Virus record (IMG/VR): IMGVR_UViG_3300032326_001208
Coordinates: 1-64,000 of that record
Direction: 5' to 3' (one strand)
DNA length: 64,000 bases
Source: a virus
Lineage: Duplodnaviria; Heunggongvirae; Uroviricota; Caudoviricetes
Shown: one piece after another, positions 11,086-62,564 of the stretch
Numbering within the stretch: position 1 is the first letter of the stretch
Layout: the number at the start of each line of letters is the position of its first letter
The notes under the pieces: model-generated
What the model was told of the DNA's origin: nothing
The model's input: only the letters and a program-made list of their open reading frames with translations
The model's database searches: none
Made by a program: the position numbers and the translations under genes

Positions 11086-11265
11086 TTCATAACTCATTGA
11101 TTTTCAACACATTCATAACTCATTGATTTTCAATGGGTTATTTTTTGCCCAAAAATTCTTGATTGAGAATCAATTAGTTACGCTTTTAGGGGTAAAAATA
11201 GTCCCTTAAATATTTGGTAGATTGGTAACTATTTTGTAGTTTTAGGTATAATAAAAATTGAAAAT
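11086..11265. promoter_or_regulatory. Operator-rich intergenic region plus promoter
   Basis: Two direct copies of ttcataactcattgattttcaa, then the inverted element ttcttgattgagaatcaattagttacg, then atttgg-N20-ttttgtagttttaggtataataaaa directly upstream of the ATG. Confidence 0.55.
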
Positions 11266-11517
11266 ATGAGTAGTTTTGAAACAAATTTAGGTATTATAGT
11301 GGGTTCACATTTGAACGATGCTATGATTGAAGTTAGTATTAATCCACAATTGGCTAGTAAACGAATGAAGTTTGTAAAGGCCTTAACGTTCTTTAATGAA
11401 GATTTGACAAAAGGTGTAACCGATGACTATTGTGATTGGTTATGGAATGAATTATTTGAAAATGGTAGATGGGGTGGTCCTTATGTTAAAGGTACAATTT
11501 ATCATAAAGTTATTTAA
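11266..11517 (+). CDS. Hypothetical protein
   Basis: 83-aa ORF, first gene after the promoter region. Confidence 0.5.
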   Translation: MSSFETNLGIIVGSHLNDAMIEVSINPQLASKRMKFVKALTFFNEDLTKGVTDDYCDWLWNELFENGRWGGPYVKGTIYHKVI

Positions 11518-11527
11518 AATTAAAAAT

Positions 11528-11806
11528 ATGAATAAGCTAGTTTTTAAAGTTAATGAGAAGGCTTGCGTAGCTTTCCTTAAAAAGTATCCTTTGGTATGTA
11601 ACCTTATGGAAAATTCGGATGGTAAAGATTTGATGTCCGGTTATAAGAAGTTCTTAAAGTTAAAGGATATGAACGAATCAAAGTTGGGTGGTAGAGCTGA
11701 ATGTATCGGTTCAGTATCGTTTGGTACAAAAACATTTTACAAGTACGATTGGGACGCTTGTAGTGGTTGGGCTGAATTATTTCAATATTATAAAAGTAAA
11801 AAATAA
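11528..11806 (+). CDS. Hypothetical protein
   Basis: ORF trimmed to the MNKLVFK start, which abuts the upstream stop. Confidence 0.5.
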   Translation: MNKLVFKVNEKACVAFLKKYPLVCNLMENSDGKDLMSGYKKFLKLKDMNESKLGGRAECIGSVSFGTKTFYKYDWDACSGWAELFQYYKSKK

Positions 11807-11810
11807 GAAT

Positions 11811-12539
11811 ATGAATTTAAGTATTAAAGAGATTAACGAACTCATTTATTCGTTGGGTATTACCTACCATAATGGTAACTTTGTTAATAAAGAAGTTAAT
11901 GAATCTTTGTTAGAAAAATTATATGGTGAATTGAATTCTAAAATAGCCGAAGAAGCTATTGATGAAGAAGTTAGTGAATCAGATTGGTTTGATGAACCAA
12001 CTCAATCACAATTGGATGCTATTCAAAGATGGCTTAAAAACGGTGATGATTATGAAGATTGGGATTGGGATGGAAAAACTTTAACTATATACAATTGTAA
12101 TGGTGGTATTGAAAAATATACCTATCAGGACCTTTTAGATGTGAATGTATTTGATAATACGAATTCGCATTTTGTAAGTAACGAAGAAGCCGATGAAGAT
12201 TATCGTTCAACATTACAACAAGATTCAGATAGATATGAATCATCGGTTAGTAAAGATTACGATAACCACTTAAAAAATATAAGAGAACGTGGATATATTA
12301 CACAAGCTCTTTTAGATTATGTGGATAGAAAAGGTGCAGTATCGCATGGTGAATTGGAAACATACTATAAACAACTTACCGGTTCTAATAGTTTCTCACA
12401 CATTTTACAATCATTGAGAACGCCTTATAAGAATCGTAAAACACAAAGATATATAGCTAAAGAAGGTAAAAGATATACCGATGCTAAATATATCATTAAG
12501 GTAGCTAATCCATCAAATTGGATAATTGTAAATGATTAA
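11811..12539 (+). CDS. Hypothetical acidic protein
   Basis: ORF trimmed to the MNLSIKEINEL start; 242 aa. Confidence 0.5.
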   Translation: MNLSIKEINELIYSLGITYHNGNFVNKEVNESLLEKLYGELNSKIAEEAIDEEVSESDWFDEPTQSQLDAIQRWLKNGDDYEDWDWDGKTLTIYNCNGGIEKYTYQDLLDVNVFDNTNSHFVSNEEADEDYRSTLQQDSDRYESSVSKDYDNHLKNIRERGYITQALLDYVDRKGAVSHGELETYYKQLTGSNSFSHILQSLRTPYKNRKTQRYIAKEGKRYTDAKYIIKVANPSNWIIVND

Positions 12540-12561
12540 TTAAAAATAAAAAAATAAAGTT

Positions 12562-12831
12562 ATGGATATTAGAGAAAAATGTAGAGAGCGAGCTACTAAA
12601 TTCGCTATTGATTATGGGTTCACAAATGTAAGTGAACATATTTTGGATGTCATGGTTTCTATTATGTGTACAAGAGATAAGAGTTCTTATGCAGGTGGTG
12701 GTTTTGTACAGGCAGTAGTTGATAACAATTTGTATTTGGCTTTGAGTAGAGCGGATATGGATTGTAGAAACAACATTTATTTGTTGGTAATGTGCAAAGC
12801 AAATTGTTTTTGTAATGAGTATGAATTTTAA
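12562..12831 (+). CDS. Hypothetical protein
   Basis: 89-aa ORF. Confidence 0.45.
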   Translation: MDIREKCRERATKFAIDYGFTNVSEHILDVMVSIMCTRDKSSYAGGGFVQAVVDNNLYLALSRADMDCRNNIYLLVMCKANCFCNEYEF

Positions 12832-12853
12832 AAAATAAAAAAAAAGAAAAATT

Positions 12854-13087
12854 ATGGCAAGTATTGATATTGATATTGATGACATTCTATATGGGATGAC
12901 TAGTTGGGAAAAGCAAGAATTGGTAGATGAATTGTATGCCAATGGGTATGTGGCTAAAAAAGATGATGGTGCTAATAGTTCGGATGATGAATGGAATGAG
13001 CAAGTTCATAAACTATTCAACAACAAATGGAGATTGACAAAAGAAGATGAAGAAACAATTTTACGAATCACAAATAAATTAGTATAA
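12854..13087 (+). CDS. Hypothetical protein
   Basis: 77-aa ORF. Confidence 0.45.
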   Translation: MASIDIDIDDILYGMTSWEKQELVDELYANGYVAKKDDGANSSDDEWNEQVHKLFNNKWRLTKEDEETILRITNKLV

Positions 13088-13088
13088 C

Positions 13089-13358
13089 ATGAGTAACGAA
13101 AAATTTGATTTTTACATTGATAAAAAAATAACAATGTGGGTAAGGGAGCATCACACAATTGAATGTGAGACATTGGATGAAGCTAAAACTAAAATGATTG
13201 AGTGTTTCAAAAATGATAATTTTGATAATACATATGAAGATAGTGAAACTTTATATGGTACTGAAACCGATATGGAACCCGGTGATAATGGTGGTCAATC
13301 AACGGCTGAATTATTTTATAGTGATACCGATGAATTATTAACAACAAACATATCATAA
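13089..13358 (+). CDS. Hypothetical acidic protein
   Basis: 89-aa ORF. Confidence 0.45.
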   Translation: MSNEKFDFYIDKKITMWVREHHTIECETLDEAKTKMIECFKNDNFDNTYEDSETLYGTETDMEPGDNGGQSTAELFYSDTDELLTTNIS

Positions 13359-13359
13359 A

Positions 13360-13575
13360 ATGAAAGCATTAGAAGCATTTTTAATTGTAGTAGGATTGCT
13401 GTTATTATCAGCAATCATTTTGGCATTTCCAACAATGTGGTTATGGAATTGGTTAATGCCTCAAATATTTGGCGTAACACAAATTACATTATATCAAGCT
13501 ATGGGTATAAACTTTTTGGCAAATATTCTTTTCAAATCAAATGTAACTATTAAAAGAGAGAACAATGGCAAATAG
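13360..13575 (+). CDS. Hypothetical membrane protein
   Basis: 71-aa ORF with two hydrophobic helices. Confidence 0.45.
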   Translation: MKALEAFLIVVGLLLLSAIILAFPTMWLWNWLMPQIFGVTQITLYQAMGINFLANILFKSNVTIKRENNGK

Positions 13576-13735
13576 TATTACACTAGACGAACAGATGGAT
13601 ATTGAATTGATATTAGAAGAAGCATCTGCGTATGGATTGAGAGTAGAAGTTGAGGAATACGCACAAAGATATATTATTGAAGGTTTTACACCCGTAGAGG
13701 CATACCAACATGCATATTACGAATGGATTAAATAA
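13565..13735 (+). CDS. Hypothetical small protein (56 aa)
   Basis: ORF MANSITLDEQ...YEWIK found by eye in the gap before 13742; overlaps the previous stop. Confidence 0.3.
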   Translation: MANSITLDEQMDIELILEEASAYGLRVEVEEYAQRYIIEGFTPVEAYQHAYYEWIK

Positions 13736-13741
13736 TAAATT

Positions 13742-14056
13742 ATGTTAATAGAAAATTGGAATAAAATTTATGGTGAACATCTTTATACTAACAATGTAAT
13801 GTATGAAGTTTGTAAAGATACTATGACAGTTGCACCACAATCACATACATTAAGACTGAATCCTGTTAGAGGTGGTAATCAGGATAATAAAGCATTTACT
13901 ATTGTTATTACGATGTTGGATAAACGTATTGCATGTGGTGTCTATATAGATAACCAATGGAATCCAATTGAGATATTTGATATGTCTAAATTAGACCTAA
14001 AAAGAATGGATACATTTAAAAAGCTGTTATCAGCTAAAATACAAAATTATGAATAA
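13742..14056 (+). CDS. Hypothetical protein
   Basis: 104-aa ORF. Confidence 0.5.
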   Translation: MLIENWNKIYGEHLYTNNVMYEVCKDTMTVAPQSHTLRLNPVRGGNQDNKAFTIVITMLDKRIACGVYIDNQWNPIEIFDMSKLDLKRMDTFKKLLSAKIQNYE

Positions 14057-14417
14057 AAAAGAAGTGGAGAAATTGGCCGAATTATATTTTGATAGGACCG
14101 TTGAACTTTTGGGTGAAAGTAAATACCAATTACACACTCCATATTTAGTTATAGAAACTACACCGGAATCGGAAGGTATAGATAACGAATGGCATGGTGA
14201 GTATAACCCGGAAGAAAACGAAATTATAATCTATTCAAAAAATATAACATCAAAAAGTGACTTGGCAAAAACAATAGTGCATGAATACGCACATTATTTA
14301 CAGGATCCTAAATGGATGACACGTTATTATAATATGGGATACAAATACAACAATCACCCATACGAAAAACAGGCATTTATGGTGGAAGAATTAAATTGGT
14401 ATAAAGTATGCAAATAG
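14049..14417 (+). CDS. HExxH-motif protein (putative minimal zinc metallopeptidase); paralogue of 41591..41947
   Basis: KTIVHEYAHYLQDP ... GYKYNNHPYEKQA; the same architecture recurs in 41591..41947 (TILHEWTHAQQS ... GYKNNPYEIQA). Confidence 0.5.
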   Translation: MNKKEVEKLAELYFDRTVELLGESKYQLHTPYLVIETTPESEGIDNEWHGEYNPEENEIIIYSKNITSKSDLAKTIVHEYAHYLQDPKWMTRYYNMGYKYNNHPYEKQAFMVEELNWYKVCK

Positions 14418-14620
14418 AATTTTTAAACGCTAATAACTCTTTGTGGATAGTGAAAAGAAAGTTCAAAGCAGATAGTTGGTTTGTGCAAGGTTTATTCTCA
14501 AACAAATTTAATGCACAAGAAGTATGTGAATACTATTGTGTAGAAAAACTATTGAGAGGACCGGATGATACCCACTATTTAGTAAACGAAGTATCCGAAG
14601 CTGAAATAGTAAATGATTAA
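14408..14620 (+). CDS. Hypothetical protein
   Basis: 70-aa ORF. Confidence 0.4.
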   Translation: MQIEFLNANNSLWIVKRKFKADSWFVQGLFSNKFNAQEVCEYYCVEKLLRGPDDTHYLVNEVSEAEIVND

Positions 14621-14638
14621 CTTAATATTTATACACTT

Positions 14639-14965
14639 ATGAAATATAATCCTGAACAAGAATTAACCGATGAGCAAATGAAGGAATTATCCGAAGATGC
14701 TTTCTTTGAATATTTGGATAGTAAATCGGCATACCTAAAAGAACAATCAGTACCTTTGGACCAGTATCACGTTAAGAAGTTCGCATCAGTAACTATGGGT
14801 GGGAATATGTCAACAAAGCAATTAAAAAGAGCAAAAGAAATTGGTAGAGAAGGTGAGATGGTTCGTAATGATAAGTTAAAAGAAGCGGCTAAACATATTA
14901 CCGCAAAAGTTCCTGAATTAAATGTGAGGGGACATAAAACACATCGTTCACAGTGGATAGATTAA
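14639..14965 (+). CDS. Hypothetical protein
   Basis: 108-aa ORF. Confidence 0.5.
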   Translation: MKYNPEQELTDEQMKELSEDAFFEYLDSKSAYLKEQSVPLDQYHVKKFASVTMGGNMSTKQLKRAKEIGREGEMVRNDKLKEAAKHITAKVPELNVRGHKTHRSQWID

Positions 14966-14982
14966 TTAATAAATTATAACCT

Positions 14983-15150
14983 ATGGGTAAGTTTTATGAG
15001 AATTTAGATGACCTAATAAATTTGGTTAAGAAATTAGAAAAAAAAGATGAAGTTGCTATATTCATTTTAAGAGTAATAGCTTATGCAAAGGAGCACCCGG
15101 AATTATCAGTTCATCAGATAATAAAAGACGTTAAAAAGGAGAGATTCTAA
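14983..15150 (+). CDS. Hypothetical small protein (55 aa)
   Basis: ORF MGKFYENLDD...KKERF found by eye. Confidence 0.3.
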   Translation: MGKFYENLDDLINLVKKLEKKDEVAIFILRVIAYAKEHPELSVHQIIKDVKKERF

Positions 15151-15323
15151 CTCGTTGATAATCAATGAGTTATAAATCATTGAAAATCAATCAGTTACGC
15201 CCCCTAAAAAATTCTTGATTGAGAATCAATTAGTTACGTCTTTACCCCTAAAAATAACCCCTAAAATATTTGGTAGTTTCATGCCTTTTTTGTAGTTTTA
15301 CGATGTAATAAAACTTAAAAATT
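15151..15323. promoter_or_regulatory. Operator palindromes plus promoter
   Basis: ctcgttgataatcaatgag (16 of 19 positions self-complementary), then attcttgattgagaatcaattagttacg, then atttgg-N~20-ttttgtagttttacgatgtaataaaa upstream of the ATG at 15324. Confidence 0.6.
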
Positions 15324-15854
15324 ATGGCTACAAGCAATTTCCACAATGTAAACGCTACCCACATTTTCGCGTGTTCATTAGAGAACGAATGGGATTATGA
15401 AGATTTAGTAGATAATCTTACTTATGAATTTAAAAACCACGCCGATTGGTACGATGGTAACAAAAGTGACCCGCACGAATGTAGAAGTTTTCCTTCACGT
15501 GTTTTGGGTTCATTAACTAAAAGTTTTTCATACAACGATTTCAGTTTAGAAGTTTGGGTTTCACCTGTTATTCGTAGTGGTTACTATGAAGGTGTGAATT
15601 TAGATTGGAACGCTCATTATTTTATCAATGGTGATGAATATGAGATTGATGAATTAGAAAATGGTATTGGATATAATACAGCGTTATCAAATTCTAAAAT
15701 CAAAGCTTACGGTTTATTGGCTGAGAAAAAAGCTGAGAAGTTAAGGAATGAATTGGTTGAAGTAACTGAAAACATATTCAATGATTATTCTATGAAGTTA
15801 GGAGTTACCGCTCGATTCTCTAATGGTGAAACAATTTATCATAAAGTTGCCTAA
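15324..15854 (+). CDS. Hypothetical protein
   Basis: 176-aa ORF directly downstream of the promoter. Confidence 0.55.
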   Translation: MATSNFHNVNATHIFACSLENEWDYEDLVDNLTYEFKNHADWYDGNKSDPHECRSFPSRVLGSLTKSFSYNDFSLEVWVSPVIRSGYYEGVNLDWNAHYFINGDEYEIDELENGIGYNTALSNSKIKAYGLLAEKKAEKLRNELVEVTENIFNDYSMKLGVTARFSNGETIYHKVA

Positions 15855-15855
15855 T

Positions 15856-16017
15856 ATGAAAACGTATTACGATATAACAATGGTAACCGCCAGTGGTGAT
15901 AAGATTAAAATGAAAGGGGTATCCTATTCACTTATCACCCAGCTATCTTACCAGTTTGAATCGGTTAAAGAAGTTATCATTGATAAAGAATATTCAAAAA
16001 AAATTAGTAAATATTAA
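15856..16017 (+). CDS. Hypothetical small protein
   Basis: ORF trimmed to MKTYYDIT. Confidence 0.35.
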   Translation: MKTYYDITMVTASGDKIKMKGVSYSLITQLSYQFESVKEVIIDKEYSKKISKY

Positions 16018-16020
16018 GTT

Positions 16021-16233
16021 ATGAATAAGATAGAAGAATTAAAATCAGTAATTGGGAAAGATGTTTCCCAAAACTTTTCACCAACTTGTAGAGCAAGATT
16101 GGTTAAAGTAAACAAAGTGAATTCAACATTTGAATCAGTTCCATCACCTTACAATAAGTTTCCTAAACCGGAGTTTGTTGGTGTTAAGTACAAAGTACCG
16201 AATTGGATTGCTTGGAATAGTTTCTTTTATTAA
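16021..16233 (+). CDS. Hypothetical protein
   Basis: 70-aa ORF. Confidence 0.4.
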   Translation: MNKIEELKSVIGKDVSQNFSPTCRARLVKVNKVNSTFESVPSPYNKFPKPEFVGVKYKVPNWIAWNSFFY

Positions 16234-16250
16234 TCGTTAAAAATTAAGTT

Positions 16251-16466
16251 ATGATAAAAAGTAAAAAACAAAGTTTAGGAATTGAAATTGATTTGACGGG
16301 ACCTGATGGTAACGCATTTGTATTGATTGGTACTGCTACTAAATTAGCTAGACAATTGGGATTAGATGGTAAAGCTATCCAAACCGAAATGATGAAAGGT
16401 GACTACGAACATTTAGTAGCAACCTTTGATAAACACTTCGGACATTTTGTAACCTTATATAGATAA
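16251..16466 (+). CDS. Hypothetical protein
   Basis: 71-aa ORF. Confidence 0.45.
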   Translation: MIKSKKQSLGIEIDLTGPDGNAFVLIGTATKLARQLGLDGKAIQTEMMKGDYEHLVATFDKHFGHFVTLYR

Positions 16467-16470
16467 TACA

Positions 16471-16812
16471 ATGAGAAGATTTCGTTCACACTTTCCACCG
16501 GTATCCTTTCAAGGTATATTCAGTAAACAATGGTATATCATATGTAGTTCCGCTGGTGATGGTTGGGTAAAAGTAGATAGGAGTTATAGATGGGATGAGT
16601 TGGAAAAACTTTGGGATAAAATTGAGTATGGTGTTAAAGATAAAGTAACACCTGTTAAGAAAGAACGTAAGGAATACGAAGTAGCAGGTAGTAAAGGTAA
16701 TACCTACAAAGTGATAAATGATGAAGGTGTTTGGAATTGTAGTTGTCCTGCGCATAGTTTCGGACGTGGTAAAGATTGTAAACATATTATATTAATAAAA
16801 AATAAAAAGTAA
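16471..16812 (+). CDS. SWIM zinc-finger protein
   Basis: C-terminal WNCSCPAHSFGRGKDCKH matches the CxC..CxH SWIM finger. Confidence 0.5.
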   Translation: MRRFRSHFPPVSFQGIFSKQWYIICSSAGDGWVKVDRSYRWDELEKLWDKIEYGVKDKVTPVKKERKEYEVAGSKGNTYKVINDEGVWNCSCPAHSFGRGKDCKHIILIKNKK

Positions 16813-16815
16813 GTT

Positions 16816-17229
16816 ATGGGATTTTTTAGTTGGAAAACACAAGATACCGATAAGAGTATCGCTAACAAATATTCTATTCGTAGAACGTTTAGAGTACAAA
16901 TGATGGATAACAAAGGTAATGTATGGACCGAAGATGATTACGATGGTTATGGTGTATTTGGTGGTAAGGATTATTATGAATTACTTGCTGAAATGAATGG
17001 AGTAACATCGGTTTATGAGGGTGGTGAAAAATATACCTTTGATATGAGACAAGAGGGTATTAGTTTAGCATTTGGTAAAAACAATGGTAGTGGAGTTGGA
17101 ACGGATGGTGTGTACTATCCTAATTTAGTGGAGCAAGCTAATGGTTGGGTTTATCAAATGAGTGGACCTGATAGTTGTGATGAGCAGGGATTCTTTTATG
17201 GTGATGACGATGAAGATGAAAATTATTAA
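16816..17229 (+). CDS. Hypothetical protein
   Basis: 137-aa ORF with an acidic C-terminus. Confidence 0.5.
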   Translation: MGFFSWKTQDTDKSIANKYSIRRTFRVQMMDNKGNVWTEDDYDGYGVFGGKDYYELLAEMNGVTSVYEGGEKYTFDMRQEGISLAFGKNNGSGVGTDGVYYPNLVEQANGWVYQMSGPDSCDEQGFFYGDDDEDENY

Positions 17230-17253
17230 TAAACAAAAATAAAAATTAAAGTT

Positions 17254-17712
17254 ATGGGATTAGACATGTATTTGTACAAAAAGAATTACATTTGGCAAGG
17301 TGAATGGGTAAAGCCAGAAATAAAGCAAGAAGTAATTGTAAAGAAAGGCGGTGAGGTAGATAGTTCAATCAAACCTGAAAAAGTAAAGTATGTGATTGAG
17401 GAAATTGGTTATTGGAGAAAAGCTAATCAAATTCACGAGTGGTTCGTTCAGAATGTGCAGGATGGTAGAGATGAGTGTCAAGAATCTTATGTGAGTAGAG
17501 AGCAGTTAGAAGAATTGCTTGGAGTATGTAGGATTGTAAAGATTGATAAAAGAAAAGCTGAACAATTGTTACCTACCCAAAGTGGTTTCTTTTTTGGTGG
17601 GACTGAATACGATGAGTATTACTATCAAGATATTGATAACACAATTGAGATTTTAGAAGAAGCGCTTAGTGATGAAAAAGCAGATGATTTCGTATATAGA
17701 GCAAGTTGGTAA
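17254..17712 (+). CDS. Hypothetical protein
   Basis: 152-aa ORF. Confidence 0.5.
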   Translation: MGLDMYLYKKNYIWQGEWVKPEIKQEVIVKKGGEVDSSIKPEKVKYVIEEIGYWRKANQIHEWFVQNVQDGRDECQESYVSREQLEELLGVCRIVKIDKRKAEQLLPTQSGFFFGGTEYDEYYYQDIDNTIEILEEALSDEKADDFVYRASW

Positions 17713-17731
17713 ACAAATTAAATTATAAGTT

Positions 17732-18223
17732 ATGGGAGTTGATATTTCAGGCAGAAAGCCTACAACAAACGAAGGTGATTATTTCGGTTCTAATTGGTGG
17801 GGATGGAGACCTATCAATACGATTTGTCAATTAGCAGCATACAATTCTAAATTAAAGATTGATTTCTCTTATTGGGGTTCAAACGATGGTAAAGGATTGA
17901 GAACACAAAAGCAATGTGATAAGTTAGCAGATGCTATCGAACTATTGATAAGTGAGAGTATAGACTTTAATGAGTTTATGATGGACGATGATAATAGGGT
18001 TTATATTTGCTTAGGTAGTTGGGTTGAAGCTGGTACTGGTAGATTCATTCCATCTGAAAAGCAAATGGAATTAAATAAAGATTATCCTGAAGGTACGATG
18101 ATGTTCAGGTCAGTTGTAATGCCGGATGGTACATTGGCAGAATCATCGCATAGTACATCATTGGGTAGAATAAAACAATTCGTTACATTCCTTAGAGGAT
18201 GTGGTGGATTTCAAATTTACTAA
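17732..18223 (+). CDS. Hypothetical protein
   Basis: 163-aa ORF. Confidence 0.5.
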   Translation: MGVDISGRKPTTNEGDYFGSNWWGWRPINTICQLAAYNSKLKIDFSYWGSNDGKGLRTQKQCDKLADAIELLISESIDFNEFMMDDDNRVYICLGSWVEAGTGRFIPSEKQMELNKDYPEGTMMFRSVVMPDGTLAESSHSTSLGRIKQFVTFLRGCGGFQIY

Positions 18224-18224
18224 T

Positions 18225-18644
18225 ATGGGAAAGGTATTTGAAAGTGAATTTCATAAAGGAGTGATTGTAGCGGTTGTTGATAAAGGTGATTATCAATATC
18301 AACAACTCGCACCACTATTCAATGAGTATGGTTATGGGTTTGTAGCAACTGACCAAAAGTTAATATTCATTGATGGTGACCAATCTGCTTCAACACAAAA
18401 AATAGTAGAGGCACACGAAGTTGGACATATTGTATTCAATCATACGGGTATTAAAGGTCCAAATGATGAAGCTGAAGCTGATAGTTGGGCTATTCTAACT
18501 TTAAGAAAGTATGGGTATTCGGTAGAAGCTGATACGTTGAGTGTTGAATTCAGAAATAGACATGGTTATCCATATAATCACGCTAGAAACAAAAGAAACA
18601 AAATAAAAGTATTGAGTACGATTTTTGTGAATCAAATAGTATAG
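18225..18644 (+). CDS. HExxH protein, ImmA/IrrE-like putative metallopeptidase
   Basis: KIVEAHEVGHIVFNH motif; small (about 140 aa), like ImmA-family anti-repressor proteases. Start trimmed to MGKVFE. Confidence 0.45.
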   Translation: MGKVFESEFHKGVIVAVVDKGDYQYQQLAPLFNEYGYGFVATDQKLIFIDGDQSASTQKIVEAHEVGHIVFNHTGIKGPNDEAEADSWAILTLRKYGYSVEADTLSVEFRNRHGYPYNHARNKRNKIKVLSTIFVNQIV

Positions 18645-18698
18645 ATTTGGTAGATTCAAAATAATTTCGTATATTTGTAAAAACCCCTTAATATTAAT
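18645..18698 (+). promoter_or_regulatory. Bacteroidetes-type promoter (TTTG ... TAtaTTTG)
   Basis: atttggtagattcaaaataatttcgtatatttgtaaaa: a TTTG box then 19 nt then TATATTTG. Confidence 0.55.
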
Positions 18699-19319
18699 AT
18701 GAAACGTTATACAAAAAATGATAAAGCATTTATCCAACACGTAAAAGATGAGTGTAAACGATTGGGTGTAAAGAATCACATTAAAGATGTGAAGTATGTA
18801 AAGTTATCACCTACGATTAGATGTAGTGGATACTTTGATGAGGCGGATCCTGAAAAAGGTGCTATACTAGCGGCTTCAATGGGTAAGCCGGATGGATTGG
18901 AAATATTGGTTCACGAATATTGTCACCTTACACAATGGCAAGATGGATTTCATTTGTGGAAAAAAGCAGGTAGAGCATTGCCTGTTATTGATGAGTGGTT
19001 GGAAGGTAAGTACAAAAGACCTCAAACATTGAACAAAGCATTTGAAATTGCTATTGGTTTGGAAAGAGATAATGAAATGAGAAGTGTACGAATGATTAAC
19101 GAATGGGGATTGAGTATTGATACCGATAAGTACATTAAAAGAGCTAATGCATATTTGATGTTCTACAATTGGTTAAAACAATCTAGAAAATGGAGTAAGC
19201 CAGGTAACCAGCCATATAACAACAAACGTTTAGTGGCAGCAATGCCGGCTAATTTTAAAATGGATTATAGTAAGTTACCCAAAAAGTTTGAAACAATTTA
19301 TAGAGAAGAAAATATCTAA
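18699..19319 (+). CDS. HExxH-motif protein (putative metalloprotease/SprT-like)
   Basis: LEILVHEYCHLTQWQDG motif. Confidence 0.45.
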   Translation: MKRYTKNDKAFIQHVKDECKRLGVKNHIKDVKYVKLSPTIRCSGYFDEADPEKGAILAASMGKPDGLEILVHEYCHLTQWQDGFHLWKKAGRALPVIDEWLEGKYKRPQTLNKAFEIAIGLERDNEMRSVRMINEWGLSIDTDKYIKRANAYLMFYNWLKQSRKWSKPGNQPYNNKRLVAAMPANFKMDYSKLPKKFETIYREENI

Positions 19320-19320
19320 T

Positions 19321-19665
19321 ATGGGAAAACTAAAAGAGCACTTATTGAATAACTTAACGCCGGAAGAAATGGATGAACGATTTGAACTTTCGGCATTTGA
19401 ATATGTAGAACTTATGGAAAATTATAAACAACAAAGTGAACAATTACCCGATGAGGTGGTTGGACAATTAATTCAGGAACAAACTGAATTGGAAAACGAA
19501 TTTTATGCTCAATCTGAAATTGATGACATAAACGATAGTGTAAAATTAAAGTACACAGATAACGATATTTTATATGTGTTGGATGGGTTGGCAGGGCCTG
19601 TTTTAACCAGTATGATAATGGGCAAATTGAACGATGTTTGGAATACCAAAAATGGTGTAGAATAA
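19321..19665 (+). CDS. Hypothetical acidic protein
   Basis: Trimmed to MGKLKEHLL, which abuts the upstream stop. Confidence 0.5.
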   Translation: MGKLKEHLLNNLTPEEMDERFELSAFEYVELMENYKQQSEQLPDEVVGQLIQEQTELENEFYAQSEIDDINDSVKLKYTDNDILYVLDGLAGPVLTSMIMGKLNDVWNTKNGVE

Positions 19666-19916
19666 CCTATTTTTAACCGATTTTAAGGGGTTTCTTGGTG
19701 TTGGTAGGGTTAGACTTCCTTTATTGGAAAATAACCCCTAAAATCACCTAGAAACCCTTTAATATGTAATCCGTTGATTATCAATGAGTTACAAATATTT
19801 GATTTTATTACCCATAAGTCATTGATTTTCAATAAACTTTTTTGAAGATTTTACCCCAAAAATTTGGTGGTCTCAATACAATTTTGTAGTTTTACTATGT
19901 AATAAAATTAAAAATT
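19666..19916. promoter_or_regulatory. Structured intergenic region with operators and promoter
   Basis: Long imperfect inverted repeat ttttaaggggtttct ... agaaaccctttaa, then ccgttgattatcaatgagttac and cattgattttcaa operators, then atttggtgg-N-ttttgtagttttactatgtaataaaa. Confidence 0.55.
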
Positions 19917-20276
19917 ATGAGTTTACCGTTTAATCCTATTAGGGTATTTGAAACCGCTCCATTAGTTGAGGGTTATGATGTTATTAAGAATGCTTTCCCG
20001 GTTGTTGGTAAGTATAGTAATAGAGTTATTACTTACGCCGATGCTGTGCATGAAGCTCTAAATGAAATAACCGAAGATTATTCAGATTGGCCAGAGGACC
20101 AAGGTTTTGGTAGTTCGGATATGACGTATGTTCGTCAATCATTCATTAATACAATGATTAGTTTGGCTAACCTTAATGGTTACTATATGACCGATTTCAA
20201 ACCTTACTTAAAAGTAGTTGAGTACAATGAAATTGAGAAGGAAGAATATGACCTTCGTAGAGAGCAAGGTCTTTAA
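19917..20276 (+). CDS. Hypothetical protein
   Basis: 119-aa ORF downstream of the promoter. Confidence 0.5.
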   Translation: MSLPFNPIRVFETAPLVEGYDVIKNAFPVVGKYSNRVITYADAVHEALNEITEDYSDWPEDQGFGSSDMTYVRQSFINTMISLANLNGYYMTDFKPYLKVVEYNEIEKEEYDLRREQGL

Positions 20277-20298
20277 TTAATAACTAAAAATTAAGTAT

Positions 20299-20526
20299 AT
20301 GAAGTATATTACAGTAGCTCCTTACGAAAAGTATTTTACATTGAGACTTTTTAATGGTAACGTTTTATTAGAAGAACAGTCCACAAACCAACCGTTCTGC
20401 TCCGTTCCACTTAAAATAATCAAATCTATTATGAAAGGATGTGGTGCTAATCATTGTGAAGTGTATGTAGGAGACAGTGTGGGTTATGTTGAAAGTATCC
20501 CGATTGAGCAAATCAGTATTAAATAA
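20299..20526 (+). CDS. Hypothetical protein
   Basis: 75-aa ORF. Confidence 0.45.
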   Translation: MKYITVAPYEKYFTLRLFNGNVLLEEQSTNQPFCSVPLKIIKSIMKGCGANHCEVYVGDSVGYVESIPIEQISIK

Positions 20527-26193: not shown

Positions 26194-26419
26194 TAGTCAA
26201 TGACTTATAACTTATTGGTTCTCAATGAGTTATACATATAAACTGGCCTAATATGGTGGGTGGTATATTCACCTTACTTGTGTATTTTAGGGGAAATTTG
26301 GGGTGTTTCTGTACGTTTTGTCACCTTAAATTACCCTAATTCCCCAAAAAAACTTCAAAATAAATTTGGCCGTTTCAGGCTTTTTTCGTATCTTTACGTT
26401 GTATTAAAAATTTAAAGAT
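26194..26419. promoter_or_regulatory. Operator palindromes plus promoter
   Basis: ctgattgatagtcaatgacttat and ctcaatgagttatac, then tttttcgtatctttacgttg upstream of the ATG. Confidence 0.5.
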
Positions 26420-42460: not shown

Positions 42461-42817
42461 TTAAAAAGTTATCCACACCTGTTGGAAATATCAGGTATTT
42501 TTCGTAACTTTAGGGAGTGGAGGGCGGGGTACGTCTTTTGAGTGAGACCCCTAATAACGGATATTATGTTAAGTCCACAACTCGTTGATAATCAATGGGT
42601 TACGATGGAAAACCCCCTAATTCGCCTATAAATTATATTATGTTAAGTCCGGCTGCCGCAAGTGGTTGATAATCAATAAGTTACCAAGATCCAGCTTTTT
42701 ACCAAAAAATTCTTGATTGAGTATCAACGAGTTACGCTTTGGGGACCAAAAATAGTCCATAAAAGACTTGTTTATATCGGAAATTCTATGTAGTTTTGGT
42801 ATATAAGATTAAGAGAT
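42461..42817. promoter_or_regulatory. Operator-rich region (three palindromes) plus promoter
   Basis: ctcgttgataatcaatgggttacg (42581..), agtggttgataatcaataagttacc, ttcttgattgagtatcaacgagttacg; tattatgttaagtcc is repeated twice; the promoter follows. Confidence 0.55.
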
Positions 42818-45299: not shown

Positions 45300-45508
45300 C
45301 TTCTGGAATCGGTGTAGGGGCTGAGTGAAATACCCCTAATCTATACTGAATCGTAACTCATTGAAAACCAACGTTTTATAAGTCATTGATAACCAATCCC
45401 TTACATAAGTCATTGATTCTCAAGCAAGAATTTTTAAAATAAGTCCCAAAAAGTTTGGCCAGCTCGGAAAATACCCCTATCTTTATTATGTAATAAAAAT
45501 GATAAGAT
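45300..45508. promoter_or_regulatory. Operator repeats plus promoter
   Basis: cgtaactcattgaaaacc, ataagtcattgataacc, ataagtcattgattctcaag, then tttgg-N-ctttattatgtaataaaa upstream of the ATG at 45509. Confidence 0.5.
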
Positions 45509-47099: not shown

Positions 47100-47448
47100 C
47101 AAAATAGGGGTTTCATAAGTGGTTGATTATCAATACGTTATAACTCGTTGATTATCAATATGTTAGGATTGGGGTGGGGTTTAGGGCTTGGATGTATTCG
47201 TATATATTCGTATTTTTGGGGTGTTTCTTGGGGTTATTTTTATCAGGTAGGGTTAAGATATGGACGAGGTGAAATAGGGGTTAAAATCGAACGGAAAGGG
47301 ACGAATATATAAAGTGTTGATTTTCAATGACTTATGTATGGGGTTAAAATATATCCATAATCGGTTGATTTCCAATCGAGAACTTTTAGGTAGAATTTGG
47401 TGGTCTCAATTAATTTTCGTAATTTTAGGTATAAAAGTTAAGTTAGAT
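47100..47448. promoter_or_regulatory. Operator repeats plus promoter
   Basis: gtggttgattatcaatacgttataactcgttgattatcaatatgtt; gtgttgattttcaatgacttatg; ggttgatttccaatcgag; then atttggtgg-N-ttttcgtaattttaggtataaaag. Confidence 0.5.
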
Positions 47449-57517: not shown

Positions 57518-57910
57518 TTAATCTAATAATAATTTTTCATCACCATCATCGTTCTGATTTACATACGCCGATGTAGTTGTAGTAGTTCCTGTTAATGTAT
57601 ATGCTCCACCACTACCATTTGATGTTGTATAAGTGATTGTACTTCCGCTTGGAAAACTTGTTGAACTAAATGTACCACCTGTTGTAATAGTGCCACTTAA
57701 CGGAGTTATTGTTGGTGAAGATATAGTTGTCCATCCACCACCAATTTGATTAGGAGTTCCCCAACCACCAATACCAATAGGAGTACCAATAGTATCATTC
57801 ACTTCTTTTAGCTTCTCTCTAATTGTATCAAATTGCTTTTTACTAATATCATATCCGTTGATAGCATCTAAAAATCCTTTCAACCATTGTGTATATTCTT
57901 GGCTAGTCAT
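57518..57910 (-). CDS. Gly/Thr-rich protein (helical N-terminus, low-complexity GGW/TTT tail)
   Basis: 130-aa ORF. Its own minus-strand promoter lies immediately upstream: TTTGgtataatcaaaaacattttgTATCTTTGtaaaaataaattATG. Confidence 0.5.
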   Translation of the reverse strand: MTSQEYTQWLKGFLDAINGYDISKKQFDTIREKLKEVNDTIGTPIGIGGWGTPNQIGGGWTTISSPTITPLSGTITTGGTFSSTSFPSGSTITYTTSNGSGGAYTLTGTTTTTSAYVNQNDDGDEKLLLD

Positions 57911-57961
57911 AATAATTTATTTTTACAAAGATACAAAATGTTTTTGATTATACCAAATAAA

Positions 57962-57993
57962 AACCCCCATATTTCTATGAGGGTTTGTTTGAT
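57962..57993 (-). terminator. Putative terminator for the minus-strand genes
   Basis: Reverse complement reads aaaccc-N14-gggttttta ttt. Confidence 0.35.
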
Positions 57994-58025
57994 TAGCTAA
58001 TATCAACTTTGTCTTTAATTTACTA

Positions 58026-58139
58026 TTACTTCTTTAGGAATCCTTTAGCGAATTTTACTAAGAAAGGAACAGCGAAGTATCCAACTAATCCACCTACAAG
58101 GAAGTGAAAATTGAATACGAAATCTACAATTGTTTGCAT
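58026..58139 (-). CDS. Possible 37-aa hydrophobic peptide
   Basis: MQTIVDFVFNFHFLVGGLVGYFAVPFLVKFAKGFLKK read by eye; unsupported otherwise. Confidence 0.2.
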   Translation of the reverse strand: MQTIVDFVFNFHFLVGGLVGYFAVPFLVKFAKGFLKK

Positions 58140-58290
58140 GTTTCTATTTGTTTAAGTTAATCAAAATAACATAATAATAAAACAAGCGCTAATTTGTTTT
58201 AATAAATATCGTACAAAATGGTATGGTAACATTAACTATCCACATTCTGATAAACAACTTTAATTGTGATAGTTAATAAAATATATTATA

Positions 58291-58830
58291 CTATAATAGT
58301 GATATAATAATATTGGCTGTATCATTATTGATTGGTACTTTAAAATACTCAACATCGTATCTTTCAAGCATAGAAACAATTTCTCTATCAATCTCTATAC
58401 TTTCTTCTAACTTTTGAAATCTTCCATCTTCTTGATACATCGCAGGGTCTCTTTCCAAAACTATATTTAATGAATCGTAATTAGAATGCAAATCAACAAT
58501 AAACTCGTCAAACTTATATCCATAGAACATCGCAGGATATTCTGGTTCTTCATTGTATCTATCTTTATAGATTAATCCAAATAGAATTGGTGAATCAACA
58601 ATAATATAATCAACCTGTCCATATAGACGAGAAATGTTACGGTGTTGATTAGCGGTAATATAAAATTGGTCTTTAACTGCGTAAACATTTCTTTCCCAAG
58701 CTTGTAACTTTGGAAATTCATAAGGCATCTCAACATTGTATCCTGCCTTTTTCATCTCATAATACAAACCCGCTGCTTGTGTGGATTTACCAATTGAAGG
58801 TCCACCGAATAGATTAATAATTTTGCTCAT
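58291..58830 (-). CDS. P-loop NTPase, probable nucleoside/nucleotide kinase (AAA_28/NadR-like)
   Basis: Walker A LFGGPSIGKST at the N-terminus, Walker B-like IIVDSP; about 180 aa, like small kinases. Confidence 0.55.
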   Translation of the reverse strand: MSKIINLFGGPSIGKSTQAAGLYYEMKKAGYNVEMPYEFPKLQAWERNVYAVKDQFYITANQHRNISRLYGQVDYIIVDSPILFGLIYKDRYNEEPEYPAMFYGYKFDEFIVDLHSNYDSLNIVLERDPAMYQEDGRFQKLEESIEIDREIVSMLERYDVEYFKVPINNDTANIIISLL

Positions 58831-58898
58831 AATACAAAGGTACGAAAATTTATTGAAAGGACAAAATAAAGGGGAGAATTTCTTCTCCCCATTTATTA

Positions 58899-61800
58899 TT
58901 AGTTAAAGATATATCTTACACCCAATTGAATTTGGTAGCGAGAACTAAATCCTACGTTATCTCTGAATGAATCAGTAAACGGAACTTTGTTTCTTCCATC
59001 TAAATAAGGGAATGAGAATACCGGAGTTTTTCCATCAGTATCCAATCTTACAAATGTAAGTGGAGTCATTGTTGTTGGTGTTTGGTTTACACCCCAATTT
59101 TTACTTAGGAAGTTTGTGAAGTTATAGATATCAGCTGTGAATCTTAAAGTATGTTTAGTATCTTTATATTTGATATAAACATCTTGTGTAAAGTTCAAGT
59201 CTAATCTATTAACCCAAGGTAGAACTAATGCTTGTCTTTCTGCAAATTGACCTCTACGAGAGTTAAGGTATTTGTTGCCAGAAATGAAAGCATCTAATTG
59301 ATTCCACAATTCAGCCTGTGTACGGGTATCAGCTACACCACTTACTGCACTTGCATTTACCAATTTAATTTGAGATGCATCGGCTGGAACGAACATCAAT
59401 TCATTACCATTGAAACCATCATTGTTTAAATCACCTGCGTATGTGTACGATAGTGAAGATTGTAATGGGTTAGGAGAACCTTCATACAATAAACCAAATG
59501 AAGTTCTTGTATTCTTAAAGAACTCTTTACCATATACCAATGAACCTACAATTCTATGAGGTAAGTAGTTGTTTGAAAAACCTGCTTCAAAGTTATTAGG
59601 GTCAGTTGATGTTGGTCTAGCTCCCCACATTGTAAATGCGGTTGAACCATTGATTGTAGCATCTTTTGCTGTTTGACGAGTATAAGATGCGTTTACTGCT
59701 AAGTTCTTAAATTGTCTTTGAACTTGTAATGTACCAAACAATACATAACCAATGTTAGCATTGGTCATATAGATTGCATTACCAATATTTGGATTGGTTG
59801 GTGTTTGTGCGGTTCCGGTTGCATCATAAACTGAACGTTTAATAAAACGAGTTTGTCCATTTGCTAAAGTTATATTACCAGTTGAAGGTAATGCAACGTT
59901 TTGGAAAACGGTAGCGTTAATGTTCTTAATATATGTACCTTCCGCAGTTACAGTCCATCCTAACACTTTCTTATCAACTGCTAAAGTTGATTTCCAAACT
60001 TGCGGATATTTGTAATTAGGGTCAGTTACGTTAAGTGAATACGCTCTTGATAAACCTGGTGTTGGAGTTGGTCTATATGCATCAATGTTTGGATTAAACA
60101 TATATCCTTGTCCATTTGTAATAGAACCGAATAATGCCATACCCGTATTAGATGCTTGGTTAGAAATCCAAACGAAAGGTGGAGGGCCTTGGAATAATCC
60201 TGTACCACCACGAACTTGTAAAGTTTGGTCATTATACACATCCCAGTTGAAACCAATTCTAGGCGATAATTGTAAAGCATTTTTAGGTGCTAAACCTGTG
60301 TTTAATCTTACACCACCATAGAATCTACTAAGTGTATCAACTACTGGATTGAAAAGGAAGTTATCAGCAAATGCTACATAATCCGCTCTCAAACCATAAG
60401 TGATTGTTAAGTTATCTTTTACTCTAAATTTATCTTGAGCAAATAAACTTAATTCAGTATTCTTTGGACCAACTAATGGGAATTCACCGGTTAGTGACCA
60501 AGACAAATCATACACAGCTGCTGGTTTTGTACCTGCTGCCGATGCGTAGAAATCAGCTAAACTATTGAAACGGAATGCACCTGCGTAGTTAGGTGAGAAG
60601 CCATTCTTATATTGTTTAAATGAATTTTGTGTACCAAATGTAAATTCATGCTTACCTTTGTATAAGTTGAAAATATTATTCAATTGAATTACATCTGAAT
60701 TCAATGCGTTACCATAAGTGAATCTTTCATAACCAAAAGTTGTGAAAGGTAAACCATTACCATCTAATATGTCCACTTGTGGAAAATTACCAGCTGTTAG
60801 TGTACCTCTGAAATCTCTTAATTTAGTGTATCCAATTTGTAATTTATTGTTAGCTGAATTAGAGAATCTAGTGTTTAACTCACCGATGATGATGTCTGCG
60901 TTGTTATTAATTGTATAACCACCACCATAAAACGGCATTGAAGTTGTACTTGGTCTTCTACCATTTGATGAGTTTACTGATTGTGAGTTAGATGCTGGAA
61001 TATCTGCTGATGAACGTAATAGTGTATATTTCAATGAGAATGAATTTTTACTATTAATATTCCAATCTAATTTAGTAGTCAATCTTTTTGATACTGAACC
61101 ATATTGGTATCCTTGATATGCACCTGGATCGTAATTATATTTTTCAATTAAGAACTTTCTCAATGCATCCAAATCAGATGCTTTAGCTTGAGATACGTTG
61201 ATACCATTTGGTGTATTATTAGCGTCAGCTGCTACCCATTGTGTACCAGGTTCCATTCTACTTTCTTGTTCACCATTTACAAAGAAGAACAATTTGTTTT
61301 TAACAATTGCTCCACCTGCGGTGAATCCTTTTAAATCATAAGTGAAATCTTGCTTTGGTAAAGTTACATCACCAACTTTGTAACCCTGTAAATCTTTATT
61401 CTTAAAGAATTGGTAAACCGAACCGAATGATTGGTTCTTACCACTACGAGTTACGGTGTTGATTGAACCACCCGCGAAACCACCGAACTTTACATCAAAA
61501 GGTGAAACGTTAACTTGGATTTGCTCAATCGCATCTAATGAGATTGGTTGTGCTCCAGTTTGACCACCCAATGTACCATCACCTAAACCGAAAGAGTTAT
61601 TGAAGTTAGCTCCATCCAAAGTAACGTTATTCAATTGAGAAGATAAACCACCAAATGATAAGTTGTTTTGCGAAGGTACTAATTTAACTAAATCTTTCCA
61701 GCTTCTATTAACGTTTGGTATTCTCTCAATCAATTGTCTGTTGATAATCTCTTGAGAACCATTACGGCTAGAGTTAAATACCTTACTTTGTCCTGAAGTT

Positions 61801-62159
61801 ACTACTACTTCTTTCAAAGTTGTTGATGCTTCTTTCAAAATAAAGTTTGCCTTGTGTGACTGACCCAATAACAATGTAATATCGTCTTGATGTTCTGCTT
61901 TGAAACCAATTGATGTTACGTGAATTGAATACGGTCCACCGATTTTCAAGTTTGGCAAGTTGTATCTACCATCAGTACGAGAAGAAGTTGTGTACTTCGT
62001 ACCCGTTGGCTGGTGAGTAGCTACAATTGTTACACCTGCTAATCCGGCTTTTCCATCAGAAACCAAACCCTGAATTTCAGAGGTAGTTTCTTGCGCACTT
62101 GCTCCAAATGATAATAGTGTTATCACTACCATAAGGAGAAATTTTCCGATTTTTTTCAT
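58899..62159 (-). CDS. TonB-dependent outer-membrane receptor (with carboxypeptidase-regulatory-like N-domain)
   Basis: Signal peptide MKKIGKFLLMVVITLLSFGASAQE; IQGLVSDGKAGLAGVTIVATH...GRYNL (CarbopepD_reg-like); plug-domain motifs; about 800 aa of alternating beta-strand pattern; 1086 aa total. Confidence 0.85.
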   Translation of the reverse strand: MKKIGKFLLMVVITLLSFGASAQETTSEIQGLVSDGKAGLAGVTIVATHQPTGTKYTTSSRTDGRYNLPNLKIGGPYSIHVTSIGFKAEHQDDITLLLGQSHKANFILKEASTTLKEVVVTSGQSKVFNSSRNGSQEIINRQLIERIPNVNRSWKDLVKLVPSQNNLSFGGLSSQLNNVTLDGANFNNSFGLGDGTLGGQTGAQPISLDAIEQIQVNVSPFDVKFGGFAGGSINTVTRSGKNQSFGSVYQFFKNKDLQGYKVGDVTLPKQDFTYDLKGFTAGGAIVKNKLFFFVNGEQESRMEPGTQWVAADANNTPNGINVSQAKASDLDALRKFLIEKYNYDPGAYQGYQYGSVSKRLTTKLDWNINSKNSFSLKYTLLRSSADIPASNSQSVNSSNGRRPSTTSMPFYGGGYTINNNADIIIGELNTRFSNSANNKLQIGYTKLRDFRGTLTAGNFPQVDILDGNGLPFTTFGYERFTYGNALNSDVIQLNNIFNLYKGKHEFTFGTQNSFKQYKNGFSPNYAGAFRFNSLADFYASAAGTKPAAVYDLSWSLTGEFPLVGPKNTELSLFAQDKFRVKDNLTITYGLRADYVAFADNFLFNPVVDTLSRFYGGVRLNTGLAPKNALQLSPRIGFNWDVYNDQTLQVRGGTGLFQGPPPFVWISNQASNTGMALFGSITNGQGYMFNPNIDAYRPTPTPGLSRAYSLNVTDPNYKYPQVWKSTLAVDKKVLGWTVTAEGTYIKNINATVFQNVALPSTGNITLANGQTRFIKRSVYDATGTAQTPTNPNIGNAIYMTNANIGYVLFGTLQVQRQFKNLAVNASYTRQTAKDATINGSTAFTMWGARPTSTDPNNFEAGFSNNYLPHRIVGSLVYGKEFFKNTRTSFGLLYEGSPNPLQSSLSYTYAGDLNNDGFNGNELMFVPADASQIKLVNASAVSGVADTRTQAELWNQLDAFISGNKYLNSRRGQFAERQALVLPWVNRLDLNFTQDVYIKYKDTKHTLRFTADIYNFTNFLSKNWGVNQTPTTMTPLTFVRLDTDGKTPVFSFPYLDGRNKVPFTDSFRDNVGFSSRYQIQLGVRYIFN

Positions 62160-62564
62160 GTGTTTTGTTTTTTGTTTAAATTGTAACCATTAAAAATAAA
62201 AAAGGTATAGAGATTACTCCCCATACCCTTTTAGAGTTTATGACTTTTTACAGTCAAATTCGTTATATATAAATTTGTATATGTATATTCTACATTCATA
62301 GGCTTTGAAACATTTTTTACCCTTATAACTATATCCATTTTTTGTAAAAGTTTAACAAATATACGAAAAATTTTCCACCAAACCAAATATTTTGAGATAA
62401 ATTATTGAAGGTCAATGACTTATAAGTGGTTGATAATCAGATATTTATAAAAAACTCAAAAAAGTTCATAATTTGTTGATTTTCAATGACTTATGAGGGT
62501 ATTTTTATGAAAAAAAATTTGGAAAATTGGAAATTTTTTCGTATTTTTACATAGTAAAAAGATT
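62160..62564. promoter_or_regulatory. Divergent promoter / operator region
   Basis: Minus-strand promoter (reverse complement of about 62340..62400: tttggtttggtggaaaatttttcgTATATTTGtta). Operators ggtcaatgacttataagtggttgataatcagat and tgttgattttcaatgacttatg. Plus-strand promoter ttttttcgtatttttacatag. Confidence 0.55.

Follow-up and report, generated by a model that had tools for sequence, protein, structure and literature searches.

Genomic context and the recurrent palindrome

The window analysed here, i.e. the whole 64-kb stretch covering positions 1 to 64,000 of the IMG/VR virus record IMGVR_UViG_3300032326_001208, carries a palindrome which recurs in its intergenic regions, upstream of promoters. 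The window has a G+C content of 32% and a strongly positive GC skew, and its plus strand is densely filled with small open reading frames (ORFs), non-coding DNA making up 11.2% of the total. Several genes are of auxiliary type, coding for a Trp halogenase, an ATP-dependent DNA ligase, two SPFH proteins and a purine nucleoside phosphorylase, and others code for Cpn10, a cyclophilin, a SET-domain protein and a Kyanoviridae Gp96-like protein. Start codons lack a Shine–Dalgarno sequence and are placed after Bacteroidota-type promoters (TTTG ... TAnnTTTG). Because of this promoter type, and since several IMG/VR contigs of 229–274 kb have many proteins in common with the window, the latter is part of a jumbo phage with a Bacteroidota host. 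A search of INPHARED by megablast retrieved no near-identical phage, and no close cultured relative was found. There is no match on record for the Trp-halogenase product, IMG/VR and INPHARED contain no relative of a 545-aa ORF, and an Rfam scan of the window returned only tRNAs.

The initial annotation of this DNA described a 19-bp near-palindromic operator with the core TTGATnATCAA, present in two to three copies at each of eight intergenic regions. The recurrence itself is well founded: the core TTGATNATCAA is found seven times for 0.30 occurrences expected, and the 19-mer, with up to three mismatches, eight times for 0.03 expected. Alignment of the copies nevertheless reveals a longer unit, a palindrome of 25–27 bp (ATAAcTCATTGA-NNN-TCAATGAgTTAT), which can be written in short form as TAA-N4-TTGAT-W-ATCAA-N4-TTA (25 bp). 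A position weight matrix (PWM) built from these copies and used with a threshold of at least 15 bits retrieved 24 sites in nine clusters, and the rest of the 64 kb never exceeded 8 bits. All eight regions first listed were recovered, together with one site which had been missed (42439-42463). The exact core is present in only seven copies, the remaining ones being TTGA-N3-TCAA variants, and a region holds two to four sites, which often abut with a period of 25–26 bp. In every copy, the TTGAT and ATCAA pentamers are separated by a 1-bp spacer. The inner TTGA/TCAA and the outer TAA/TTA are well conserved, N4 and the centre poorly so, which leaves four conserved blocks, located ~3.5 and ~11 bp to either side of the dyad.

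The centres of 23 of the 24 sites are located in non-coding DNA, the single site overlapping a coding sequence (42439-42463) covering the last codons of an ORF. Hence, the motif does not reach a similar density in coding regions, a pattern which had been put forward as the mark of a non-functional repeat. Among the intergenic gaps of at least 80 bp, 8 of 24 contain sites.

Arrangement of the sites upstream of promoters

The clusters and the promoters which follow them are given below, with the PWM scores of the sites and the position of their centres relative to the TA of the -7 element. No strand is assigned to the palindromes.

Cluster p11: 11090-11114, 11116-11140, 11156-11180; centres 11102, 11128, 11168, i.e. 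135, 109 and 69 bp before the -7 TA; 21.1, 32.6 and 23.1 bits
Promoter p11: 11213..11244, plus strand; TTTG-N20-TAGTTTTA, ATG at 11266
Cluster p15: 15148-15172, 15173-15197, 15212-15236; centres 15160, 15185, 15224, at -133, -108 and -69; 34.1, 30.4 and 23.1 bits
Promoter p15: 15269..15300, plus strand; TTTG-N20-TAGTTTTA, ATG at 15324
Cluster p19: 19767-19791, 19815-19839; centres 19779, 19827, at -108 and -60; 31.3 and 20.9 bits
Promoter p19: 19863..19894, plus strand; TTTG-N20-TAGTTTTA, ATG at 19917
Cluster p26: 26183-26207, 26208-26232, abutting; centres 26195, 26220; 32.2 and 30.5 bits
Promoter p26: 26365..26396, plus strand; TTTG-N20-TATCTTTA, ATG at 26420
Cluster p42: 42439-42463, 42578-42602, 42659-42683, 42710-42734; centres 42451, 42590, 42671, 42722, the proximal one at -69; 22.8, 31.0, 28.6 and 26.1 bits
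Promoter p42: 42767..42798, plus strand; CTTG-N20-TAGTTTTG, short ORF from 42818
Cluster p45: 45354-45378, 45379-45403, 45406-45430; centres 45366, 45391, 45418, at -112, -87 and -60; 24.9, 29.3 and 22.4 bits
Promoter p45: 45454..45485, plus strand; TTTG-N20-TATCTTTA, ATG at 45509
Cluster p47: 47116-47140, 47141-47165, 47310-47334, 47358-47382; centres 47128, 47153, 47322, 47370; 30.7, 27.9, 26.8 and 15.2 bits
Promoter p47: 47396..47427, plus strand; TTTG-N20-TAATTTTA, ATG at 47449
Cluster p62: 62398-62422, 62423-62447, 62469-62493; centres 62410, 62435, 62481, at -132, -107 and -61; 23.2, 20.2 and 29.2 bits
Promoter p62: 62518..62549, plus strand; TTTG-N20-TATTTTTA, ATG at 62565

Behind eight clusters, the same near-identical cassette is found, consisting of an A-rich/CCC box, TTTG, exactly 20 nt, TAnnTTT(A/G), GTAATAAAA and an ATG located 21–31 nt after the TA of the -7 element. 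The earlier observation that the copies lie upstream of a TTTG-type promoter is thereby confirmed for all eight gene-proximal clusters. Proximal sites are centred at -50, -60, -60, -61, -69, -69 and -69 from the -7 TA, second sites at -87 to -120 and distal ones at -112 to -135, so that the centres lie 50–135 bp upstream of the -7 element and the promoter core is not overlapped. This geometry is directly apparent and extends beyond the window: over 25 loci, the proximal site falls 44–77 bp before the -7 TA in 36 of the 46 promoter-like elements which have an upstream site. As the gap from the upstream stop codon varies from -9 to 711 bp and the distance to the promoter is constrained, the sites are features of the promoters rather than of the 3' ends of preceding genes. 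Each site-linked promoter is followed directly by an ORFan, with one exception: 47449-47772, the first gene behind promoter p47, which is GIY-YIG homing-endonuclease-like.

Two clusters, 26183-26232 and 47116-47165, are found 58–88 bp before weaker promoter-like elements which have no ORF behind them. In cluster p26, the distance of the sites to the -7 element of promoter p26 is 169 and 194 bp, but a promoter-like TATTTTAG, read by eye at ~26283, follows them at only ~63 and ~88 bp. Similarly, the first pair of cluster p47 precedes by 83 and 58 bp a promoter-like TATTTTTG at 47211, and the second pair is located 98 and 50 bp before promoter p47 itself.

A palindrome upstream of a gene could also function once transcribed, as a hairpin serving as terminator, as RNA-stability stem-loop at an operon end or as REP-like (repetitive extragenic palindromic) element. 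The first site of a cluster often starts at the stop codon of the preceding gene or immediately behind it, the site 11115-11141 forms a 12-bp stem followed by a T-run, a T-run follows the proximal site in related phages, and six of the nine clusters fold better than shuffled sequence. However, shuffled sequences fold as well as the clusters at 42655, 45350 and 47112, and terminator-like sites amount to one in 24: a scan for a stem followed by a T-run, covering five clusters (10500-27000, 10 sites), retained 11115-11141 only, and the inspection of the other sites by eye added none. The variable stop-codon distance and the constrained promoter distance also speak against this proposal, as does the absence of compensatory changes, the complementarity of mirrored N4 positions being at or below expectation both in the window and in viral sites unbiased by the search pattern. 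The half-sites thus vary independently, as in protein-type recognition, in line with what had first been assumed for this motif, and we regard a hairpin function as very improbable.

Other features were noted in the same intergenic regions. A second recurring motif, ACCCCTAAW, has seven copies for 1.6 expected (11185-11193, 15244-15265, 19734-19742, 42547-42555, 45332-45340 and 47030-47038), all in palindrome-bearing intergenic regions and often just upstream of the -33 TTTG. The DnaA-box-like GTTATCCACA occurs exactly at 42468-42477 and 45276-45285, where it heads two paralogous non-coding segments ending in GAGTGA..ACCCCTAAT; considered as an enriched motif, this 10-mer was rejected, since beyond its two exact copies its count with one mismatch is at chance level. 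In one viral contig (L002, 6447-6475), two copies of TGTGGATAA stand between palindromes and a promoter.

Three promoter-like elements have palindromes upstream and no ORF downstream (~26283-26345, 42505-42580 and 47211-47310). Two of the predicted transcripts would have a G-rich TTGGGGTGTTTCT in common, and these transcripts may be small non-coding RNAs; the regions have no match in Rfam. Palindrome-free promoters with a perfect TAnnTTTG are also present, at 1048, 22885, 44474 and 57937 (minus strand).

Similarity to IHF sites

The textbook consensus of E. coli IHF is WATCAANNNNTTR. Each half of the palindrome, (A/T)ATCAA-N4-TTA, fits this sequence, the consensus being that of E. coli and the hosts considered here being Bacteroidota. 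When WATCAANNNNTTR was used a priori to scan the window, 36 matches were obtained for 11.1 ± 3.4 expected, 29 of which are inside palindromes, and 29 of the 48 half-sites match the IHF consensus without any mismatch. The symmetrised sequence YAA-N4-TTGATWATCAA-N4-TTR, with up to two mismatches, gave 17 matches for 0.56 expected. All 17 are palindrome sites and seven are perfect, including 15148-15172 and three sites of cluster p42. This agreement is a direct observation, and it is retained where the rest of the sequence changes: flanks and N4 vary among the phage copies, and the IHF-consensus positions are kept.

The agreement extends to the geometry of the complex. IHF introduces two DNA kinks 9 bp apart, with WATCAR between them and TTR in the flank clamped against the protein body (bioRxiv 10.1101/382655; PMC8421141). 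If the dyad is placed on W, the palindrome reads T|TGATWATCA|A; its two CA|A steps are then separated by 9 bp, and a TTA occupies +10..+12 in either half. Taking T44 as the centre of TTR places W at position 33, which would be the midpoint between the kinks, these being reported at steps 28/29 and 37/38 of the 1IHF structure (Rice et al., 1996). A symmetric dimer with an IHF-like reading should prefer T|TGATWATCA|A with N4-TTR on both sides, as is observed, and the spacing of the conserved blocks (~±3.5 and ~±11 bp) appears to fit continuous minor-groove wrapping better than a helix-turn-helix (HTH) dimer. Since the consensus is mirrored into a full palindrome, a homodimer is implied. Judged on its letters, the palindrome thus seems best described as a symmetric IHF-type architectural site.

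The explanation which we favour, and to which we give about an even chance, is that a host-encoded IHF-like homodimer of the DNABII family binds these palindromes and bends the DNA upstream of phage promoters presumably used by the host polymerase. Each 25-bp site would be composed of two inverted IHF half-sites (WATCAA-N4-TTR) with a common central W. The symmetric dimer would kink T|TGATWATCA|A at two points 9 bp apart and clamp both flanking TTA/TAA against the protein body, producing a U-turn. One to four such bends would occupy fixed places upstream of a promoter: the proximal centre precedes the -7 element by ~50–70 bp, which puts it at roughly -65 to -80 relative to the start site, and further sites are found ~25–50 bp beyond. 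The bent upstream DNA would then probably wrap back onto RNA polymerase and stimulate host-type promoters, which head operons of small ORFan genes. As these promoters are of the host Bacteroidota type, the host polymerase is expected to transcribe the small-gene operons. IHF acts in this way at lambda pL and Mu Pe, where it wraps upstream DNA back onto RNA polymerase. We infer activation rather than repression from the position of the sites only, and likewise infer both the bending and the identity of the binding protein.

Comparison with known systems reveals likenesses and differences. As in E. coli IHF sites, each half-site has the same consensus letters and spacing, the sites precede host-type promoters (IHF sites lie upstream of lambda pL and of Mu Pe), and the phage would use an architectural protein of its host. 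In contrast, E. coli IHF sites are asymmetric, the consensus being present in one half and the other half often containing an A-tract, and are read by an alpha/beta heterodimer, whereas the palindromes reported here are arranged in tandem at 25–50 bp spacing and belong to phages of Bacteroidota. TF1 from the Bacillus phage SPO1 is a homodimeric DNABII protein which acts at early promoters, where it has preferred binding sites, and requires DNA containing hydroxymethyluracil. The likeness resides in a homodimeric DNABII protein at phage promoters; however, TF1 is phage-encoded and the window contains no DNABII gene. For Bacteroidota, no IHF recognition sequence has been described (bioRxiv 10.1101/2024.06.24.600358), and our literature search retrieved no mention of the motif, nor of an IHF-type site in Bacteroidota or their phages.

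An FNR/CRP-type site (TTGAT-N4-ATCAA) was also considered, its pentamer half-sites being identical to the TTGAT and ATCAA of the palindrome. The FNR/CRP spacer is 4 bp long, whereas that of the palindrome is 1 bp in every copy, on which ground this assignment was ruled out. With such a spacer, the half-site centres are 6 bp apart and therefore out of reach of a CRP-type HTH dimer, and the conserved outer TAA/TTA have no FNR/CRP counterpart.

First in likelihood among the competing explanations, and in our view still an unlikely one, is that another global DNA-binding protein of the host recognizes the palindrome, for instance an HTH protein bound as a pair of dimers, and that the match to the IHF consensus is coincidental. 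QacR/TetR-type proteins bind 28-bp inverted repeats as a pair of dimers, and a palindrome of 25–27 bp with four conserved blocks could suit two dimers. A motif found across hosts and phages is also what such a protein would produce, and the link between the sites and a DNABII protein is indirect. Against this explanation, both halves match all nine specified IHF positions with the right spacing, the dyad lies where the IHF fold predicts it, and the inner half-sites, 7 bp apart centre to centre, are too close for a standard HTH dimer. Moreover, no candidate protein is known.

Distribution among phages and hosts and the putative binding protein

The pattern CATTGATNNTCAATGAGTTA matches at least 113 viral contigs, many of which contain 3–8 PWM-positive sites and have a G+C content of 30–33%. 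Some are relatives of the phage in the window and others are unrelated phages of 10–60 kb. One contig (L002) displays the same layout four times, namely two sites followed by a TTTG...TATCTTTA promoter. The gene 19917-20276 has orthologues in four related contigs (L019, L075, L013 and L037), in which the tandem sites and the promoter are kept at 62–74% protein identity. In crAss-like phages, single intergenic sites are found. A BLAST search of the consensus dimer against cultured phages returned mostly chance matches in coding sequences (T4, Vibrio phages), the intergenic ones being confined to crAss-like phages. No neighbour family is common to the motif-bearing viral loci, the most widespread protein family occurring in no more than 12 of the 113.

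Among the matches listed for bacterial genomes, ~98 of 120 stretches are from Bacteroidota, and these matches are dominated by single metagenome-assembled genomes (MAGs) of Microscillaceae, Saprospiraceae and Bernardetiaceae. Genes flanked by sites in the Microscillaceae MAG include trpC, a signal peptidase gene, a response regulator gene and others of this kind, and the density there is 0.58 sites per kb.

This distribution bears on the proposal that the motif is read by one dimeric HTH protein, as in a CI/Cro-like switch or a phage-specific regulon. No HTH or other Pfam DNA-binding domain was detected in the 133 ORFs of the window, in agreement with the initial annotation, which had also spotted no HTH regulator there. 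A regulator encoded elsewhere in a genome of ~230–275 kb could nevertheless switch the operons jointly, the window representing only 64 kb of a genome related to contigs of 230–274 kb and its eight promoters forming a near-identical cassette. The six of six site-linked window promoters ending in TAnnTTTA, and not in the consensus G, could also hint at activator dependence; as a mark of such dependence the final A was rejected, the other viral loci having five A and five G. However, the motif occurs in unrelated phage groups without a common neighbour gene, in crAss-like phages and beside host genes, and the sites do not overlap the promoter core. A CI/Cro-type operator is also disfavoured by its own features: the half-sites are not one helical turn apart, the four blocks are unlike those bound by one HTH dimer, and no cognate repressor gene stands beside the operators. 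We consider a phage-encoded regulator distinctly improbable, though second among the competing explanations. Because the window has neither a DNABII nor an HTH gene, the viral loci have no gene family in common and the motif is found beside host genes, the binding factor is probably not phage-specific. The idea of host exploitation, mentioned initially as an alternative, fits best.

In the same context, one ORF between 591 and 33889 matches Peptidase_M78 (ImmA/IrrE-like; E = 1.3e-5). The usual partner of this family is an XRE-type repressor, and none to pair with this ORF was found in the window.

The host genomes bring in the possibility that the palindromes are functionless remnants of a small mobile repeat in the phage, similar to a miniature inverted-repeat transposable element (MITE). 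In the Bernardetiaceae, Microscillaceae and Saprospiraceae MAGs, sites often reside in dispersed repeats with common terminal sequences. In the phage copies, however, flanks and N4 differ and the IHF-consensus positions are retained; the position relative to the promoter is constrained across unrelated phages; and sites persist upstream of orthologous genes whose products have diverged to the identities given above. Inert repeats rank last among the competing explanations, after hairpins, and seem to us scarcely tenable.

As a separate observation, a ~150-bp element with three palindromes, bounded by CAGCAATTCCCACTTTG / CAAAGTGGGAATTGCTG, is present in host MAGs (L159 3040-3400, L193 3680-3830 and L217 2840-3300, as well as L121 from Microscillaceae). 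It often breaks contigs, and a similar terminal sequence is found in a different family. In E. coli, the RIP/RIB elements are dispersed BIME (bacterial interspersed mosaic element) repeats containing an IHF site. Similarly, the palindromes of host MAGs ride on dispersed intergenic repeats with inverted terminal sequences; this is a resemblance only, since there is no sequence relationship, the phylum differs and an element here contains up to three sites.

If a host DNABII protein is the binding factor, as we favour, candidates are to be sought in Bacteroidota. In ~1 Mb of motif-bearing viral loci, the only DNABII genes detected were two divergent HU-like ORFs lacking the RNP arm. It has been reported that Bacteroidetes possess an IHF-alpha-like clade and no IHF-beta, the dimer state and specificity being open (bioRxiv 10.1101/2024.06.24.600358). 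A putative candidate is a very conserved Flavobacteriia DNABII protein (P0015) of 96 aa, which is annotated either as an HU-family protein or as IHF subunit beta and has more than 7,999 relatives; its gene is located between mutY and RNase E/G (mutY-DNABII-rng locus). In the alignment, it has an Arg (LRGFGSF) at the position of IHF-beta Arg46, an IHF-beta-specific residue which inserts into the lateral minor groove, and Thr/Lys matching T4/K5 of IHF-alpha. These residues would be consistent with a single subunit that reads DNA in both an alpha-like and a beta-like manner, but prove nothing. An autoregulatory palindrome was looked for at this gene; a weak 16-bit match 165 bp upstream was not convincing and was discarded.

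Several points weigh against the involvement of a host IHF-like homodimer. The link with DNABII proteins is a sequence match alone. The Flavobacteriia protein has an Ile where HU and IHF have the intercalating Pro, and it is a candidate which may differ both from the IHF-alpha-like clade and from the protein of the phage host. It is uncertain that abutting sites are occupied simultaneously, because their 25–26 bp centre spacing is smaller than the 35-bp footprint of IHF. No site occurs in 40 contiguous kb of the Tenacibaculum jumbo phage pT24. The host genome matches come from a biased pattern scan (at least 120 stretches), and more than half of the host-MAG sites are within dispersed repeats with similar flanks; therefore, their abundance in hosts reflects in part repeat spread and not independent selection.

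A broader proposal, which we hold more tentatively, is that the palindrome is the undescribed recognition sequence of a housekeeping IHF-like DNABII homodimer of Bacteroidota, placed by phages at a fixed distance to boost host-type promoters and spread in hosts on MITE-like repeats. Such a homodimer would be the equivalent of proteobacterial IHF, symmetric and made of a single type of subunit, in which an Ile might take the place of Pro as the wedge, and jumbo, mid-sized and crAss-like phages of Bacteroidota would all make use of the palindrome. The motif provides a concrete 25-bp sequence and natural promoter contexts for the questions of specificity and homodimer formation of Bacteroidota IHF-like proteins. 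If this proposal is correct, a phylum-wide architectural cis-element would be defined, the annotation of promoters and regulatory regions in Bacteroidota phages, including crAss-like and jumbo ones, would be improved, and the evolutionary relation between the asymmetric site of the heterodimer and the palindrome of the homodimer would be shown.

Two other features of the window deserve mention. An array of 12 tRNA genes occupies 4-3340 (Glu, Thr, Asp, Arg, two Leu, Ala, Met, two Gly, Gln and Ser), and the consensus promoter at 1048, which lacks a palindrome, precedes tRNA-Leu; the tRNA region of a 273,997-bp contig (L088) is 94–98% identical to it. Finally, 57518-62159 is a minus-strand block within a plus-strand phage genome; it codes for a 1086-aa TonB-dependent-receptor-like protein (CarboxypepD_reg, Plug and beta-barrel), with a consensus promoter of its own at ~57937.

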